In this document: piece by piece, positions 625 to 10,239 of the stretch
Layout: every line of letters begins with the position of its first letter
Position numbering within the stretch: the first letter of the stretch is position 1
IMG/VR virus record: IMGVR_UViG_2630968808_000002
Span: 1-10,672 of that record
Origin: a virus
Taxonomy: Duplodnaviria; Heunggongvirae; Uroviricota; Caudoviricetes
Reading direction: 5' to 3' (one strand)
DNA: 10,672 nt
Program-made: the position numbers and the translations under genes
Notes under the pieces: generated by a model
The model's input: only the letters and a program-made list of their open reading frames with translations
What the model was told of the DNA's origin: nothing
Database searches by the model: none

Positions 625-647
<23 letters not shown>
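147..647 (-). CDS. Tail accessory factor / head completion protein, P22 gp4-like (166 aa)
   Basis: The ORF track gives 147..746 (199 aa), but the first 33 codons are an (SQ)8 read-through of the hexamer repeat and the ATG at 746 has GAAGG immediately abutting it with no spacer. The internal ATG at 647-645 gives [32 protein letters not shown]..., 166 aa, the size I recall for P22 gp4, with AAGGCGG upstream. Stop TAA at 149-147. Confidence 0.8.
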
Positions 648-885
<238 letters not shown>

Positions 886-898
886 GCTTGTCTCCAGA

Positions 899-922
899 TA
901 AAAAAGGGAGCCGAAGCTCCCT
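899..922 (-). terminator. Rho-independent terminator-like hairpin with U-tract directly downstream of the coat gene
   Basis: On the minus strand: AGGGAGC-TTCG-GCTCCCT (6-7 bp GC-rich stem, 4-nt loop, forward 905-922) followed by TTTTTT (forward 905-900). It starts 8 nt after the coat TGA. Confidence 0.55.
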
Positions 923-929
923 CTGGTTA

Positions 930-2225
930 TCACGCGGTCTGGTTAGGCAGACCAACACCAATTGCCTCTGGTCGTACAGCACATGCTGAATACCACACAG
1001 CAATACGGCACTTACCAGACAGAGTGTTGATATCACCCTGCGTTGCGAAGATGCCGTTAACACCAATACCAGGAATGCTGAAGGAAGACGTTTTCATGCC
1101 AGCAAACAGCTCATGGGTTACCGGGATCGGCTGAGACAGCAGACGGATTGAGTCATCAGCCCAGAACACGTTAGCGGTGGTTGTTGCCACGTTCAGAACG
1201 TTTACCGGAGTGGTATCAGCAAGAGAGGTGTTTACGTTAGCGTAAGCCTTCTCTTCTTTTGTCAGTGACGCGTCATCCAGCGCAATAGGCTTCGGCGTGA
1301 TTTCGATGTGAGTACCATCGATCACACGGGTGATTGAGAAAGTCGCGTCATCAGTCAGCACGTTCTTCGCCATCTGAGACAGGAATTTCACACCAGTGAA
1401 GCTGATTTTGTCGCCGCGCTTAAATCCGGTGGTGGAGGATACGGTCACCGTTGCAACACGGTTATCGACGTTCTCTTTGTTACCATCGGTATCAAGGGTG
1501 TATGCCTGCGGCTTAAACTTCTGCGCACCAGAAACAGTTACACCAGTAGCGGTTGACTTGGTAACTGCCGGAAGTTTCGGTGAGCGAAGAATTTCATCAA
1601 AGCCAGCAATCTGACGCTGAATAGTACCGTTGCGATACGCTTCTTCAGGAACGCGACCGAAGATGTCACCATCTACCAGGTTACGGCCTGCTTTGCGGTA
1701 ATCGTCAGGGTTCAGGAAGTAACTGATGCCCATGTCGCGGTTGAGTTCTCGGGAGAACATCAGGCGCTCTGCATCAGACACAAAATCCCAGCCAGACAGG
1801 CCAGTAGATGGACCAATTGCGCGGGTATCGTGAACAACAAGCGAGCCCATTTCAGTTGCCTGTTTGGCAATCGCTGACTCAATGTTATTCGCCAGTTTTT
1901 TGGCGGATGCCTGGATGCGGCGACGGTAAGAACGCTCATCACGCAGGTCATCTGCACGAAGCTCGAAGAAATCGTTATCCGGATCGCCCATGTTGCATTT
2001 CACGGACAGTTCCAGAATACCGGTAGCGTTGCCAGTTAAATCCCAGCCAGTCTGAGTTGGCGCTTCCTGCTCAACAGGCATCCACACGGTGTTGCTTGAA
2101 CGTTGCATGGATTCTGCCGGAGGGGTGTATTTTGTCACTTTAGACGCCATTGGCGTCAGGTTCTGGACGGTTTCGATGATTTCATCCAGAGCATACGTGA
2201 CCAGTTGACCTTCATTTAATGCCAT
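930..2225 (-). CDS. 5: Major capsid (coat) protein, P22 gp5-like (431 aa)
   Basis: ATG at 2225-2223 overlaps the scaffold stop (TAATG). Protein runs from [20 protein letters not shown] to GVGLPNQTA; I recognise it as closely matching P22 coat protein gp5 in both size and sequence. Followed by the terminator hairpin. Confidence 0.96.
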
Positions 2226-5315: not shown

Positions 5316-6815
5316 TTAAGTTCTCCGTGCGATGGGCCTGATTGGGGCTGGTATCTTTTTCTCTTTTGGTTTTTTGATGTCGCGCATCATTTTGGCGAAG
5401 CGGCGCATCATGTATGCATAGCGAACGGCGGATAGCACGTCGTCGTTAAGCTTGACGATCTTCCCGTTTTCATCACGGTGATAGAGGCGGAACTCCTCAA
5501 AGAATGGCTCACAGGTGTTAAATACTTTGAAGCGACCATCAAGCATCATGTCGCGCAATTCAGTGATTCCAGGCTCCACAGCGTTACCGCCATCAGGCCA
5601 TGTCGCATGCTCCTGCAACATCATAAAACCAGCGTCCGCGTACTGCCCTTTGAGCTGCTCACCGCCGCCCTTCTCATGCTGGTTTCCGTCATGAGGCCAT
5701 GCGGTTGGCACTTTATGCGCCCATGATTTAACAGCTCCCCATGCCTGAACAGCTGTTTTTTCTTTCGCCTTCCACACGCGTGAAACGTAGATTGTGTCTG
5801 CGTCCTTATCCCACCAAAGCTGAACCTGCGCCTGTGGGTGATCCCATCCGAAATCCATCCCACCAATTACGTAGAAGTGATCAGGACACTCGAACGGCTG
5901 ACACTTAATAGTCTCTTCCGGTATCTGGAAGATTCGACCGCTACCCATCGTAGGAATACCGCGAGCACGCGCCTCTCTCTCATGCTCGGGATAGGATGCG
6001 ATGATTTGCTCTTTCTGCTCGTCGGTGTAGTGCTCAGCGTCATAGATGGTCATGTTGACCACTTTCTGCGACTTGCTGGGATTCTTCAGGAACTTGGTAA
6101 CAACGTCAGACATCCCCATCAGCGGGGTAAACGTCAGAATTGAGAATTGCCCGTATTTGTTGGTACGGGTAAGGCCTTCGCCATAAATGCTGTATGGTGG
6201 CTCTTCGTCAAACCACACGCCGTGGATTGTGTCACCCTGCCAGCGAGCGCGACCTTGCGAGTATGGTTTGAAGTAGCAGATTGAAATGCCATCTTCAACG
6301 CCATCAGCCGTGTGATGCTTAACCAGAAGATGATCAACAAGGTTCGGAAAGAAAGGAGACTTCTTCCAGCTAATGATGTCTTCTTTAGGTATGGAACCGT
6401 AGCCTGGCTCATCATTCTCTTCGATACGACCACACAGGATGCGTTGAGTCGTTTTGGTTACAGTCTCGTTTGTCTCGCCGCCAATCCAGAAGACAACAGG
6501 CTCATAGAAACGCTTACCTTTCCACTCCCCACCATATTTACCATCAGCCGGATAGCCTTTTGTTCCCGGATAACGCCCGGTAAGGTGAAACGCGACTTCA
6601 GCAGCCCCAGTAAATGACTTACCAAGCTGGTTACCAGCCATAAAACAGCGCTCTGGATAGTCATGCCCGGCATCGATGAACTCACGCTGTTTGCTGTATG
6701 GCGTAAATTCATATAGCAGGTGTGTGTTCCGGTAGTTCTCTTCTTCTTCGAGTAGCTCGAGCAACTCGATTTGCTCTTCGTCGCTCAGGTTATCAAGAAT
6801 CGCGTCCAGTTCCAC
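5316..6815 (-). CDS. 2: Terminase large subunit, P22 gp2-like (499 aa), GTG start
   Basis: Start codon at 6815-6813 is GTG (reverse complement of cac) and overlaps the small terminase by 23 nt. Translation [30 protein letters not shown]... with a Walker A-like ATPase motif AGNQLGKS near the N-terminus. 499 aa, the size I recall for P22 gp2. Confidence 0.94.
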
Positions 6816-7281
6816 GGTTGAATAGCTCCTTGATACGAGAGCGCCGCTTATCGCGATCTCCCTTATCAGGTGTCACGTCTTCAACTTGCGACTGCTCTTT
6901 GAGGCCCAAATCACGGGCGATGATGTTAGCGTTGAGAAGGTCAGCGGCTGCGCCAGAGAATTTCTGGTCGTAGATGATGTCTTCCGCTCGTGATGTGACG
7001 TCAGAAAAACCTTCCATTGACCGGAAGGTTCCCCATGTTTGCCTGGTGATATCAAGGAAGGTACACAATCCTGAAATAGTCATGGCTCGCATCTTAGGGA
7101 CATTAGCCTTAATTATTTCTCCCTGATATGAAAATACCTTACCCTCCCATAGCGGGTTATCATCAGCCCACTCGAAGTATTCACAACAAGCAGCCCACAG
7201 CGCCTCAGGCGATTCGAATTTAGGATTTCGCCCATGACTACTGCGGGCCTCCCAAAATCGGTTGCCCTTTGGTGCTGCCAT
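6793..7281 (-). CDS. 3: Terminase small subunit, P22 gp3-like (162 aa)
   Basis: ATG at 7281-7279, 5 nt after the stop of the HslV-like gene. N-terminus [38 protein letters not shown] and C-terminus [39 protein letters not shown] match my recollection of P22 gp3, also 162 aa. Confidence 0.9.
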
Positions 7282-7286
7282 ATTGA

Positions 7287-7775
7287 TTATTTCCCTTCTG
7301 CTTGCTTCCCAGTGGTGAACGAATCAACGCCGCCGCCGGAATAGCAGTCAAGATCAATTGCGACTTGTACCGCTTCTCTCGCATTTTTGCCACAGTGCAT
7401 GGCAGTGCGAGCAATCAGCCCACCACTACCAATGGCGTAAGGTTCAACCTGTAGCGAAATACTCGCCCGCGTTTCGCCTTTCTCTTTTGAGATGATGTAA
7501 GCACGACCAGCACCGATGATAGCAAGCGCTGTGAAAGAGAATGTCGGGAGAAATTCTGATGCATACGTCAGGTTGTTCTTAAGCAGTTCCTGCAATTCCA
7601 TCTCCGCGCCGCAATCACCAGAACAACCTAATGCAACCACTTTACTGCCGCAAACCTCCCACCCAGATTCTGGCGGTGTGTAAATCTTTTGTTCTGTATA
7701 CGAACACACAACATCACCAGATGATGCCTGGGTGTCAGATGCCAGGGTCTTTCCATCCCATGCAATAGTGGTCAT
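7287..7775 (-). CDS. HslV / proteasome beta-subunit-like N-terminal-nucleophile peptidase homolog (162 aa)
   Basis: ATG at 7775-7773 with GGAG 8 nt upstream, 1 nt after the stop of the 80-aa gene. N-terminus [20 protein letters not shown] resembles HslV [24 protein letters not shown], with Thr directly after the initiator Met and a D-x-Q-A-S/T motif. EQKIY aligns with the HslV Lys33 region, [17 protein letters not shown] with KVIAGFAGGTADAFTLFEL, and there is an exact AIGSGG motif. Assignment is from manual comparison with E. coli HslV as I recall it. Confidence 0.8.
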
Positions 7776-7776
7776 A

Positions 7777-8019
7777 TCATGCTCCGGTAGTGAACAGGTC
7801 TAACGCTTCCTTCGATTTACGCACCGCTTCGATAGTTCGGGTCGTGATATCTGAATTAGCGCCACCTGACTGGAAGTGAATTTTGAATAGCTCAAGCTTC
7901 AGTTCGTCAGTGCCAATGAACTGAAATGCTTCTTCTGCGGCTGCGTTCTGGTTCATGACCAGTTTGTAAATCTCTAACTGGAATTTCTGTTCTTCAGTCA
8001 TGGGAATAATCTCTGCCAT
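7777..8019 (-). CDS. Hypothetical protein (80 aa), predicted helical and acidic; translationally coupled to the HslV-like gene
   Basis: ATG at 8019-8017 with GGAG 8 nt upstream. Translation MAEIIPMTEEQKFQLEIYKLVMNQNAAAEEAFQFIGTDELKLELFKIHFQSGGANSDITTRTIEAVRKSKEALDLFTTGA. Its TGA at 7779-7777 is 1 nt from the next ATG. No family recognised. Confidence 0.7.
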   Translation of the reverse strand: MAEIIPMTEEQKFQLEIYKLVMNQNAAAEEAFQFIGTDELKLELFKIHFQSGGANSDITTRTIEAVRKSKEALDLFTTGA

Positions 8020-8321
8020 TGTTGGCTCCGTTTATCCGTTAAAAGGGATATCAGTTAAGTTATCCCGTGTAGGGTATAAGCCATTGTCGAGACCACTCAT
8101 TGAATGGCCTCTGCAATAACCGATGTCTTTCCATCAGTCCGCCACCACAAAGAATCTTTTTTGCCATAAGGCTGGAGGTTCATCTTTCAGTGGCTGCCAG
8201 TGTTATTTCCCCACTTACTGGCTTGGGTTGTTTCGCTGTACTGCCGCAACTGGTTGCCCAGAATAAATTCCGGTTTCATTATCAAGCCCACCCGTAGATG
8301 GGCTTTGTAATGACTACATGG

Positions 8322-8801
8322 TTAAATGATTTGCCAGTCTTCAGCCATCAGGTCGCCAATGGATGGAACCCATGTAGCAAGGCGGTTCTGTGAGTTTTTC
8401 AATACAAGCGTGTCATTGAAAGTTGGCTCGCCAACATATTCGCCAAAGCCATAACCCAACGCAGACGCTAATTTTTCCCCTTTCACGAGATAAACAAACT
8501 GGTCTTTCCCATTCCATCCTGCCCGCTGCAAACTTTTGCCCTGTTTTAACGCTTCCATGGCAAGGCCGAAACTTAGTCCTGATACCGGACGATAAGCCTT
8601 TTCGAATACTTCTTTTGGACTCCAGCTAACGTAGCCATCAAAGCGATCGGTGTTAGGTTTCCCGCCATCCAGATATTCAACCAGATAGCCTTCGTCCTCG
8701 CCGTTTTCTCCGGCAGGAAGCTGCCAGCCACGAAAATCGTTATATGCCTGTCTCGTCATCGGAAAGGCGTTAATCAGTTTTACGCCAATATGCTGGGTCA
8801 T
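8322..8801 (-). CDS. Two-repeat DUF2829 / Tad2-like protein (159 aa); candidate anti-defence or accessory protein
   Basis: ATG at 8801-8799. The C-terminal half (FGLAMEALKQGKSLQRAGWNGKDQFVYLV...TWVPSIGDLMAEDWQII) carries the hallmarks I associate with DUF2829: K-x-G-K...R-x-G-W-N-G-K, then W-x-P-S...D-L-x-A-E-D-W at the C-terminus. The N-terminal half (...FRGWQLPAGENGEDEGYLVEY...SWSPKEVFEKAY) looks like a degenerate copy of the same unit. Bracketed by a terminator-like hairpin upstream and a hairpin downstream. Confidence 0.7.
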   Translation of the reverse strand: MTQHIGVKLINAFPMTRQAYNDFRGWQLPAGENGEDEGYLVEYLDGGKPNTDRFDGYVSWSPKEVFEKAYRPVSGLSFGLAMEALKQGKSLQRAGWNGKDQFVYLVKGEKLASALGYGFGEYVGEPTFNDTLVLKNSQNRLATWVPSIGDLMAEDWQII

Positions 8802-8821
8802 AAAATTACCTATGGAGTTGG

Positions 8822-8847
8822 GAATAAAAACCCCGCGAATGCGAGGC
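8822..8847 (-). terminator. Terminator-like hairpin with U-tract between Rz and the DUF2829-like gene
   Basis: On the minus strand: CCTCGC-ATTC-GCGGGG (forward 8831-8846, one internal mismatch) followed by TTTTTATT (forward 8830-8823). Lies about 175 nt downstream of the Rz stop and about 20 nt upstream of the next gene's ribosome-binding site. Confidence 0.45.
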
Positions 8848-9021
8848 TAAATCCTGGTGTTTGTGATGACTGGCTCTTATCTCAACGCAGCCCCTTACCG
8901 CGCGCCAGATGCTCAATATCAAGCATCAGCAATGAGATGTTTAATCTGGATTCACTCCAGAAGTGATCACCACCCTGTCTACAGAGCCAGATGTGAAGGA
9001 TGATGAGTAAAATTATCGCTA

Positions 9022-9459
9022 TCATCGAAGGCATTGCGTCCTGATGTATTCCTGCAGGTAGTTAACCTGCGCGGTTATCCTGTCGATTCCACTTCGGAGA
9101 CGGTAATAATTGAGTTCAGCATCTGCTGTAAGTCTTGGGCTTTCTCCATCGCCCATGCTGCTGGCTCCGGTCGTTGGCTTTGCACAGGTGGCGGCGACTT
9201 GCAGGCGCTTACGACCAGCAGAAACATCAGCACGGAGGCTTTCGATAGTCTCGTTAGCATCAGCAAGCTCCTTTGTGTATCTGGCGTCGAGTTCTGCTAC
9301 ATCACGTTGACGCTTCTGCATGTCAGCAATTGTGGATGCGGCCTTATCGCGCTGCTCTTTGTAGGCGATGGCGTTATCACGGTAGTGATTAACAGCCCAT
9401 GACAGGCAAACGATGATGCAGATAACCAGAGCGGAGATAATCGCGGTTACTCTGCTCAT
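9022..9459 (-). CDS. Rz: Spanin inner-membrane subunit Rz (i-spanin), lambda-type (145 aa)
   Basis: ATG at 9459-9457 overlaps the R stop (ATGA). Translation [31 protein letters not shown]... has an N-terminal transmembrane segment followed by a coiled-coil region, and is recognisably lambda Rz-like. Confidence 0.94.
9075..9260 (-). CDS. Rz1: Spanin outer-membrane lipoprotein Rz1 (o-spanin), embedded in the +1 frame of Rz (61 aa from the ATG)
   Basis: ATG at 9260-9258 with AAGGAG 9 nt upstream; the track begins 2 codons earlier at a TTG. Translation [36 protein letters not shown]... has a signal peptide, a lipobox VSAC, and a proline-rich mature part. It lies entirely inside Rz, the classic lambda Rz/Rz1 arrangement. 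Confidence 0.8.
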
Positions 9460-9932
9460 GCCTGACTCTCTCTGACCGTTCCGCCTGCTTCTTTGAATTT
9501 TGCAATCAGGCTGTCAGCCTTATGCTCGAACTGACCATAACCAGCACCCGGCAACGAAGCCCAGATATTGCTGCAACGGTCGATTGCCTGACGGATATCA
9601 CCGCGATCAATCATCGGTAAAGCGCCACGCTCTTTAATCTGCTGTAGTGCAACAGCGTCCTGACTTTTGGGGGAGAAGTCTTTCAGGCCAAGCTGCTTGC
9701 GGTAGGCGTCCCACCAACGGGAAAGAAGCTGGTAACGTCCGGCTGCCGTTGATTTGAGTTTTGGGTTTAGCGTGACAAGTTTGCGAGGGTGATCGGAGTA
9801 ATCAGTGAATAGCTCTCCGCCAACAATGACGTCATAACCATGATTTCTGGTTTTCTGCCGTCCGTTATCAGTTCCCTCTGACCACGCCAGCATATCGAGG
9901 AACGCCTTACGTTGATTATTGATTTCCACCAT
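9456..9932 (-). CDS. R: Endolysin, lambda R-type lytic transglycosylase (158 aa)
   Basis: ATG at 9932-9930. Translation [51 protein letters not shown]... is near-identical over the N-terminal region to lambda R as I recall it, including the catalytic Glu in WSEGTD. Confidence 0.96.
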
Positions 9933-10239
9933 CTTCTACTCCGGCTTTTTTAGCAGCGAAGCGTTTGATAAGCGAACCAATCGAGTCAGTACCGATGTAG
10001 CCGATAAACACGCTCGTTATATAAGCGAGATTGCTACTTAGTCCGGCGAAGTCGAGAAGGTCACGAATGAACCAGGCGATAATGGCGCACATCGTTGCGT
10101 CGATTACTGTTTTTGTAAACGCACCGCCATTATATCTGCCGCGAAGGTACGCCATTGCAAACGCAAGGATTGCCCCGATGCCTTGTTCCTTTGCCGCGAG
10201 AATGGCGGCTAACAGGTCATGTTTTTCTGGCATCTTCAT
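9916..10239 (-). CDS. S: Holin / antiholin, lambda S-type class I holin with dual start Met1-Lys2-Met3 (107 and 105 aa forms)
   Basis: ATG AAG ATG at 10239-10231. Translation [62 protein letters not shown]... is recognisable as lambda S, with three transmembrane segments and a charged C-terminus. Overlaps the R start. Confidence 0.96.

Follow-up and report, generated by a model that had tools for sequence, protein, structure and literature searches.

What kind of protein lies between the lysis genes and the packaging genes of this phage, and would it act as a sponge for host immune signals? The window (the whole stretch of DNA analyzed here, 10,672 nucleotides) corresponds to the late region of a P22-like (Lederbergvirus-type) Escherichia coli phage or prophage, in which every gene is found on the minus strand. 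The holin (9916–10239), endolysin (9456–9932), and Rz (9022–9459) genes are followed by a 50-residue ORF (8882–9034, minus strand) that resembles Sf6 gene 65 (phrog_11822, E = 3.9e-38) and is annotated in E. coli prophages as well as in Sf6. The target ORF (8322–8801), DUF2560 (7777–8019), an HslV-like ORF (7287–7775), and the small terminase gene (6793–7281) come next, followed by the genes for large terminase, portal, scaffold, coat, and gp4. The initial annotation had placed the target gene directly downstream of the lysis cassette, which requires a minor correction, as the conserved 50-residue ORF separates it from Rz. No tRNA gene was detected when the window was scanned, in contrast to Sf6, which carries tRNAs upstream of its holin. 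Among phage records, Escherichia phage HZ41 comes closest, with 97% DNA identity and an identical protein, and at least 80% of the 1-kb locus is present in only 34 of 5,426 complete E. coli genomes; genomes with the locus annotate the gene as a “DUF2829 domain-containing protein.”

The ORF is real at exactly 8322–8801 on the minus strand, as judged from the ORF list, and specifies an ATG-initiated, 159-residue protein of 17.8 kDa and pI 5.0 with a stop codon at 8322–8324. This protein harbors two modules, an N-terminal domain of 72 residues (hereafter the N-domain) and a C-terminal Tad2 domain, and matches phrog_872 over its full length (E = 1.9e-69). We retrieved 2914 homologs, among them an E. 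coli protein (P0001) that is 99% identical; an NCBIfam search with the 159-residue protein gave no match. Although the gene was at first thought to encode an unusual fused version of a domain that normally occurs as a single unit, the two-module architecture is the common form of phrog_872 and is found in 93 phage records, including gp49 of phage N4. The full-length AF2 model, built with 41 homologs, has a mean pLDDT of 89.9, with the relative orientation of the two domains undefined because the pTM is only 0.62; a linker of four to five residues joins the N-domain to Tad2 helix α1, which is part of the tetramer core. With good though not complete confidence, we read this protein as a Tad2-type sponge joined to an unrelated N-terminal module and carried in a cargo cassette.

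The C-terminal module (aa 75–159; 8325–8579, minus strand) contains the G-W-N-G-K and D-L-x-A-E-D-W motifs from which membership in DUF2829 had been proposed, and the HMM search bears this out, with PF11195 matching aa 77–159 over profile positions 2–73 of 73 with a score of 78.3 bits (cut-off 25; E = 6.4e-22). In a phmmer search of PDB sequences, aa 75–159 align with SPO1 Tad2 with zero gaps (E = 3e-26), and 41 of the 85 residues are identical (48%). The AF2 model of this half consists of helix 78–86, strands 91–93 and 102–106, helix 108–114, strands 131–135 and 141–143, helix 148–152, and strand 156–158, which gives an α-β-β-α-β-β-α-β topology. Foldseek matches this half to the SPO1 Tad2 chains 8sme, 8smf, 8smg, and 8wje, which include apo and gcADPR-bound forms, with a probability of 1.0 and a TM-score to the target of 0.80 to 0.93; the next matches are ModTad2 (the His-ADPR complex), HgmTad2/AcrIIA7, and SptTad2. 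From sequence and model together, the C-terminal module is clearly assigned as a bona fide Tad2 sponge domain, and the early suggestion of a Tad2-like anti-Thoeris protein or signal sponge, borne as cargo where lysis and packaging genes meet, has good support from the sequence, the predicted structure, the conservation of ligand-contact residues, and comparative genomics.

To place these ligand-contact residues in a structural context, we mapped them from SPO1 Tad2, which binds 1''-3' gcADPR through van der Waals contacts from W25 and W73 and polar contacts from N26 and D79, with S76 among the water-mediated contacts (Yirmiya et al., bioRxiv 10.1101/2023.05.01.538930). In the ungapped alignment, SPO1 W25, N26, W73, S76, and D79 correspond to W96, N97, W144, S147, and D150, and these predicted pocket residues are invariant in 41 family members except for N97, which is conserved in 40 of the 41 (≥97% throughout). 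Five of the 10 residues of the SPO1 ligand shell are substituted (I63L, T65N, D67Q, H71A, and T78G), all of which make peripheral adenine or water contacts. Characterized Tad2 homologs vary in specificity and act on types I, II, and IV Thoeris, CBASS, or Pycsar (bioRxiv 10.1101/2025.08.24.671296); this variation and the five differing shell residues make the exact ligand uncertain. The most likely ligand predicted from the sequence is a TIR-derived ADPR-type signal, with gcADPR the likeliest candidate, and we do not commit to a single ligand. The β2–β3 insertion has the same short length as that of SPO1 Tad2. In HgmTad2, long β2–β3 insertions create a cyclic-dinucleotide pocket (bioRxiv 10.1101/2023.11.15.567273), and a pocket of this type would not be expected here because the insertion is SPO1-like in length.

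The region around this insertion is variable or mosaic within the gene. The allele in phage Huey is ≈94% identical to the gene in the window except at 8348–8503 (minus strand; aa ≈100–151), where blastn breakpoints delimit a block of unrelated sequence. In alignment A1, the same central block varies en bloc among otherwise near-identical enterobacterial homologs, which suggests recombinational swapping of a specificity-relevant loop.

The N-domain (aa 1–72; 8586–8801, minus strand) is an autonomous small β-rich module for which the Pfam search gave no match; a profile search with this domain against PDB sequences, a set that did not include the RyR Tad structure, likewise returned nothing. Modeled alone by AF2, it has a pLDDT of 95.7 and a pTM of 0.81 and adopts a β-β-α-β-β-α topology; this monomer model has an N-terminal strand (residues 2–5) that could swap. 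Its signature consists of K8, W26, EGYLVEY (37–43), DGG (45–47), N50, GYVSWSPK (56–63), F66, and Y70. Alignment A1 contains 21 invariant positions in the N-domain versus 10 in the Tad2 half, and those that are polar or aromatic include K8, N21, W26, E42, Y43, D45, N50, Y57, S59, W60, S61, and Y70; the aromatic content of the domain is 15%, and its pI is 4.9.

The distribution of the N-domain is broad. An exhaustive profile search recovered it in 2866 representative clusters (50% identity) at E ≤ 1e-3, and tblastn places it in 135 phage genomes (INPHARED records). Free-standing phage proteins of 73 to 78 residues that are 55 to 70% identical to aa 1–72 are also found. In other phages, the domain is fused to further modules: in Acinetobacter phage 4316 it is joined to PF21825 (Sequestin), and in gp069 of Achromobacter phage Axy13 it is followed by PF13876 (Acb4) and then by PF21825, both of these families being experimentally validated sponges. 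Partners among the 145 best N-domain representatives comprise Tad2 (44), Sequestin (42), Acb4 (15), and the Acb2/Tad1 hairpin (2), and the N-domain occupies the N-terminal position in 127 of 144 representatives. Phages have joined this independent, mobile module to no fewer than five unrelated sponge folds, and it is the only part of the protein that goes beyond known biology.

Two known families were considered as identities for the N-domain and rejected. A divergent Acb4 is disfavored by an hhalign probability of 0.3% against an E. coli Gp49-family protein, by the lack of a PF13876 match, and by the published Acb4 fold, a three-strand core with five flanking helices (PDB 9E4W), whose topology differs. 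Lockin proteins are elongated β-rich hexamers reported to be absent from INPHARED, and the N-domain is found in the 135 INPHARED records noted above.

One characterized protein does contain this domain. RyR Tad, gp68 of Pectobacterium phage CB1, is a gcADPR sponge with a C-terminal domain resembling Repeat12 of the ryanodine receptor, and its N-terminal domain crystallizes as a domain-swapped dimer in which β1 is inserted into the partner to form a five-stranded sheet (bioRxiv 10.64898/2026.06.04.730250). The same study describes this N-terminal fold as frequently constituting a single ORF and finds that, against type I Thoeris, the domain can be dispensed with and has no activity by itself. 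Our N-domain aligns with the first 70 residues of CB1 gp68 at an hhalign probability of 97.5% (E = 5.4e-12, 70 columns; BLASTP E = 2e-6), and a BFVD search with the N-domain model returned a RyR-domain protein of Yersinia phage TG1 (E = 3.8e-4, TMq 0.76). In our literature search, no characterized protein that joins an N-domain to Tad2 was found, and only the RyR Tad preprint discusses the N-domain. All of the 18 Tad2 homologs screened by the Sorek and Kranzusch groups (bioRxiv 10.1101/2025.08.24.671296) are 80 to 98 residues long and lack the WSPK motif and hence the N-domain. That the N-domain acts mainly as a dimerizing brace is the reading we prefer for its role, with a case that we judge to be about evenly balanced.

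The strongest competing explanation gives the N-domain a ligand-binding or inhibitory activity of its own, making the protein a dual-specificity anti-defense fusion comparable to Acb4–Tad2; we regard this as possible but rather doubtful. The fusion network speaks for it, with at least 103 validated-sponge domain matches among the 145 representatives in addition to RyR Tad, and the same guilt-by-fusion logic uncovered Sequestin: Tal et al. found this sponge through its fusions to Tad2 and Acb4 in a screen of Pfam families (bioRxiv 10.1101/2025.07.12.664507). With Pfam families as its queries, that screen would have missed the N-domain, which is absent from Pfam. The many free-standing copies, the greater number of invariant positions relative to the Tad2 half, many of them polar or aromatic, and the high share of aromatic residues point in the same direction. 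Against an inhibitor function stand the behavior of the homologous domain in RyR Tad, which is inactive alone against type I Thoeris and can be dispensed with, the role of this domain in the RyR Tad crystal, which is dimerization (both from bioRxiv 10.64898/2026.06.04.730250), and the overall acidity of the N-domain. This alternative concerns the role of the N-domain only and is compatible with the assignment of the C-terminal half as Tad2.

If this tentative explanation were true, the N-domain would be a new and very widespread anti-defense module, either a sixth sponge fold or an inhibitor or shield against signaling defense or sponge-sensing systems (e.g., Panoptes), which phages combine modularly with Tad2, Sequestin, Acb4, Acb2/Tad1, or RyR Tad or else encode alone. 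The P22-like gene and N4 gp49 would then be dual-function inhibitors, and the type I Thoeris test of the RyR Tad N-fragment, the only published test, would have probed the wrong signal.

Far less probable is the proposal, made in the initial annotation, that the N-terminal half is a second, degenerate copy of Tad2, such that the protein would be a tandem duplication of a degenerate N-terminal copy and a canonical C-terminal copy, possibly with pseudo-dimeric pockets within one chain. The halves do echo one another, with RGW/AGW, YLVEY/VYLVK, and SWSPK/TWVPS in the same order, and in each of them β strands come after a helix and a W-x-P-S/K turn leads into a helix. BLASTP of aa 1–74 against aa 75–159 recovers the proposed register, but only at E = 1.6, and hhalign of a profile of 35 N-domains against one of 20 Tad2 domains gives a probability of 0.2% over seven aligned columns in another register. 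The order of secondary structure elements differs as well (β-β-α-β-β-α in the N-domain versus α-β-β-α-β-β-α-β in the Tad2 half), PF11195 matches aa 77–159 alone even when the Pfam threshold is relaxed to E ≤ 10, and the N-domain is found by itself as well as joined to four further partner families that are unrelated. The N-terminal half is unrelated to Tad2, and the tandem interpretation is abandoned in favor of a Tad2 domain preceded by a distinct module.

An anti-CRISPR of the AcrIIA7 type is just as improbable: automatic annotation labels the homologs in phages Huey, Louie, and Mimir124 “anti-CRISPR protein,” and the DUF2829 N-terminal motif is also present in AcrIIA7 chains (8kbi, E = 4e-6; 9kzr, E = 1.6e-5), but that annotation stems from DUF2829 membership, the AcrIIA7 similarity spans only ≈35 residues versus the full domain for SPO1 Tad2, and E. 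coli is not known to carry type II-A CRISPR–Cas9. The AcrIIA7 homolog HgmTad2 has, moreover, been shown to be a sponge for gcADPR and cyclic dinucleotides (bioRxiv 10.1101/2023.11.15.567273), and Yirmiya et al. argue for an anti-Thoeris rather than an anti-CRISPR role of the family.

The gene resides in a discrete cassette. Relative to Sf6, blastn and a junction alignment (A4) define an insertion of 556 bp (8316–8871) that comprises the ORF and an upstream terminator-like hairpin, and this cassette, with sharp breakpoints, is absent in Sf6, CUS-3, and Dewey; the cargo-gene layout at the lysis/packaging boundary recognized early on is thereby upheld. In CUS-3 and Dewey, the same flanks enclose unrelated cargo. 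The insertion is flanked by an imperfect 12-bp direct repeat, with a left copy, TTTGTAATGACT, at 8304–8315 and a right copy, TTTGTGATGACT, at 8860–8871 that is identical at 11 of 12 bases (alignment A4); Sf6 has a single copy, at which the blastn matches overlap (Sf6 1201–1210).

The description of the gene as terminator-bracketed holds only in part. Upstream, a terminator-like hairpin (GCCUCGCAUUCGCGGGGU + UUUUUAUU) lies at 8829–8848 on the minus strand, 28 nt before the ATG, and was delineated by scanning, folding, and blastn breakpoints; read from 8848 to 8829, it forms eight pairs, five of which are G–C, followed on the coding strand by the tail TTTATTCC. This hairpin belongs to the cassette relative to Sf6 and is common to CUS-3, whose cargo differs. 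The terminator scan alone is weak evidence because its eight terminator-like hits in 3.5 kb compare with 3.6 ± 1.9 expected. Downstream, a strong hairpin (8276–8313, inner stem 8284–8305) is located just after the stop codon; its fold z-score is −3.86 for the minus strand and −2.62 for the plus strand, and 0 of 200 shuffles were as stable. It is not a canonical terminator because the coding strand has no U-tract, a T-rich tail being found on the plus strand only. By blastn and alignment A4, it is part of the conserved backbone, as it is present in Sf6 (after gene 65) and in Dewey, both of which lack the gene.

A second insertion point lies further downstream. Another strong hairpin (8079–8121, minus strand; fold z = −4.03) ends at the blastn breakpoint 8121. 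An Acb4 (PF13876) gene occupies this junction in Sf6, Huey, and E. coli FDAARGOS_1251, and the slot is empty in the window; the Gp49-family proteins from the loci of these relatives match PF13876 in Pfam at E = 3.4e-35. The interval from Rz to DUF2560 is a hairpin-punctuated cargo slot that often contains anti-signaling sponges; in it, Huey and the E. coli prophage hold both a Tad2-like and an Acb4 gene, and Sf6 holds Acb4. In the classical definition, a moron comes with a promoter and a terminator of its own; here, hairpins lie on both sides of the gene, and we found no sigma-70-like promoter on the coding strand upstream of it. Read-through from the Q-antiterminated late promoter would be the simplest route of expression. 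Sponges are typically encoded by early genes, and placement in a late operon is unusual. Late expression would match the timing of the structural-protein triggers of Thoeris and CBASS.

The results described above cover the identity of the domains, their predicted folds, the conservation of residues, the network of fusions, and the boundaries of the cassette; the oligomeric state, the ligand, dimerization of the N-domain, and the timing of expression are inferred as follows. By homology, the C-terminal Tad2 module would assemble as a homotetramer with interprotomer pockets, which, lined by W96, N97, W144, S147, and D150, would sequester ADP-ribose-derived Thoeris signals made by TIR proteins, the likeliest ligand being 1''-3' or 1''-2' gcADPR (3'cADPR). 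With the signal sequestered, a ThsA-type effector would stay off and the phage would replicate. The N-domain most likely pairs as a dimer, possibly domain-swapped, on the outside of the Tad2 tetramer, where it may brace the oligomer or bring a second activity. The gene, whose variable cargo slot has the lysis genes on one side and DUF2560/terminase on the other, would be read within the Q-antiterminated late operon.

The protein is of a known kind, a Tad2 sponge in a common two-module form, with sponge activity predicted. The Tad2 half is ordinary in that it represents one more allele, from a P22-like E. coli prophage, of a well-studied sponge family. What the N-domain does matters more broadly: if it merely dimerizes, sponges benefit from an accessory clamp, and if it binds something, it constitutes a new and abundant immune-evasion family. 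The slot between lysis and terminase genes in P22-like phages emerges as an anti-signaling island with Tad2, Acb4, or both, probably expressed with the late genes, and such a late island would accord with recent evidence for structural proteins as triggers of Thoeris and CBASS.

Comparison with named systems places this gene among several known anti-signaling loci. The Acb4 (PF13876) moron, Sf6 gene 66, is a small, hairpin-bounded anti-signaling sponge gene in the same lysis-to-DUF2560 slot; it belongs to an unrelated family, targets the cyclic dinucleotides of CBASS, and is absent from the window (junction 8121). SPO1 Tad2 (Gp34.65; 8SME, 8SMF, 8SMG, and 8WJE) is alike in fold, in the equivalents of the pocket residues, and in its short β2–β3 insertion but is a single domain of 89 residues, whereas the protein described here has an additional N-terminal domain of 72 residues and, unlike SPO1 Tad2, is encoded in the late operon of a temperate P22-like phage of a Gram-negative host. 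Two-sponge fusions of the Acb4–Tad2 and Tad2–Sequestin types are established (bioRxiv 10.1101/2025.07.12.664507) and follow the same principle, in that Tad2 and a second small phage module share one polypeptide; the partner set of the N-domain overlaps that of these fusions (Tad2, Acb4, and Sequestin).

RyR Tad shares the two-module plan, a homologous N-terminal domain followed by a C-terminal gcADPR-sponge domain, but its sponge is an all-helical, dimer-forming domain similar to RyR Repeat12 in place of the Tad2 found here, and the N-domain of CB1 gp68 lacks the DGGKPN loop through a six-residue deletion. Phage N4 gp49 (YP_950527, 160 residues) is a full-length homolog with the same two modules (44% identity, E = 9e-45) and differs in having a shorter and distinct β2–β3 insertion with a six-residue gap. 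It adjoins the Acb4-type gp48 in an anti-signaling hotspot, and while N4 is a lytic member of the Schitoviridae in which the gp49 neighborhood lies beside the vRNAP gene, the gene described here occupies the late region of a P22-like phage.

Comparison of the Tad2-encoding gene with its allele in phage Huey reveals that the two are ≈94% identical apart from a single exchanged segment, at 8348–8503 in the window and 1022–1200 in the Huey locus (L001), which encodes the β2–β3 insertion of the Tad2 domain. This β2–β3 block is also variable across enterobacterial homologues that harbor near-identical N-domains. As judged from these alignments, the replacement relative to Huey is intragenic mosaicism.

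A strong hairpin (z = −4.0) at 8079–8121 ends exactly at junction 8121, the point at which a gene for the anti-CBASS sponge Acb4 (PF13876) is found in Sf6 (as gene 66), in Huey, and in the prophage of E. coli FDAARGOS_1251. No gene occupies this Acb4 slot in the window, and thus the phage represented here has a Tad2-type sponge and lacks the Acb4 sponge. The gene following Rz (8882–9034, minus strand) is a conserved 50-residue ORF resembling Sf6 gene 65 (phrog_11822, E = 4e-38), with a hydrophobic N terminus and a 13-nt overlap with the end of Rz. Flanked by DUF2560 and the small terminase is a 162-residue ORF (7287–7775, minus strand) with the N-terminal sequence MTTIAWDG, which matches phrog_1040 (“peptidase HslV family,” E = 3.3e-37). 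A Pfam search of this ORF returned no match, and NCBIfam gave only a faint one to archaeal proteasome beta; on these profile matches, the product resembles an N-terminal-nucleophile peptidase of the HslV/proteasome-beta type. This ORF is found in phage Dewey as well.

A perfect TCTGGC hexamer repeat of 7.7 copies (695–740) encodes (EP)n in a 102-residue ORF (625–933, minus strand) that lies between coat and gp4. It also falls within the gp4-like ORF (147–746), whose 5′ extension reads it as (SQ)n. Since the Pfam P22_Tail-4 match begins at residue 35 of the gp4-like product, the true gp4 start is probably an internal Met, with the repeat belonging to the 102-residue ORF.

In phage N4 (L010, NC_008720; region 1133–1986), the N-domain–Tad2 protein is gp49. 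In Pectobacterium phage CB1, an ORF bearing the signature motif of PF13876 has an annotation that likens it to N4 gp48, so the Acb4-like protein of N4 may be gp48; if so, the Pfam name “N4 Gp49/Sf6 gene 66 family” (PF13876) would mismatch the RefSeq gene numbering. Finally, Achromobacter phage Axy13 joins three modules, the N-domain, Acb4 (PF13876), and Sequestin (PF21825), in a single 232-residue polypeptide, gp069 (L008, 1870–2568), and two of the three are validated sponges.
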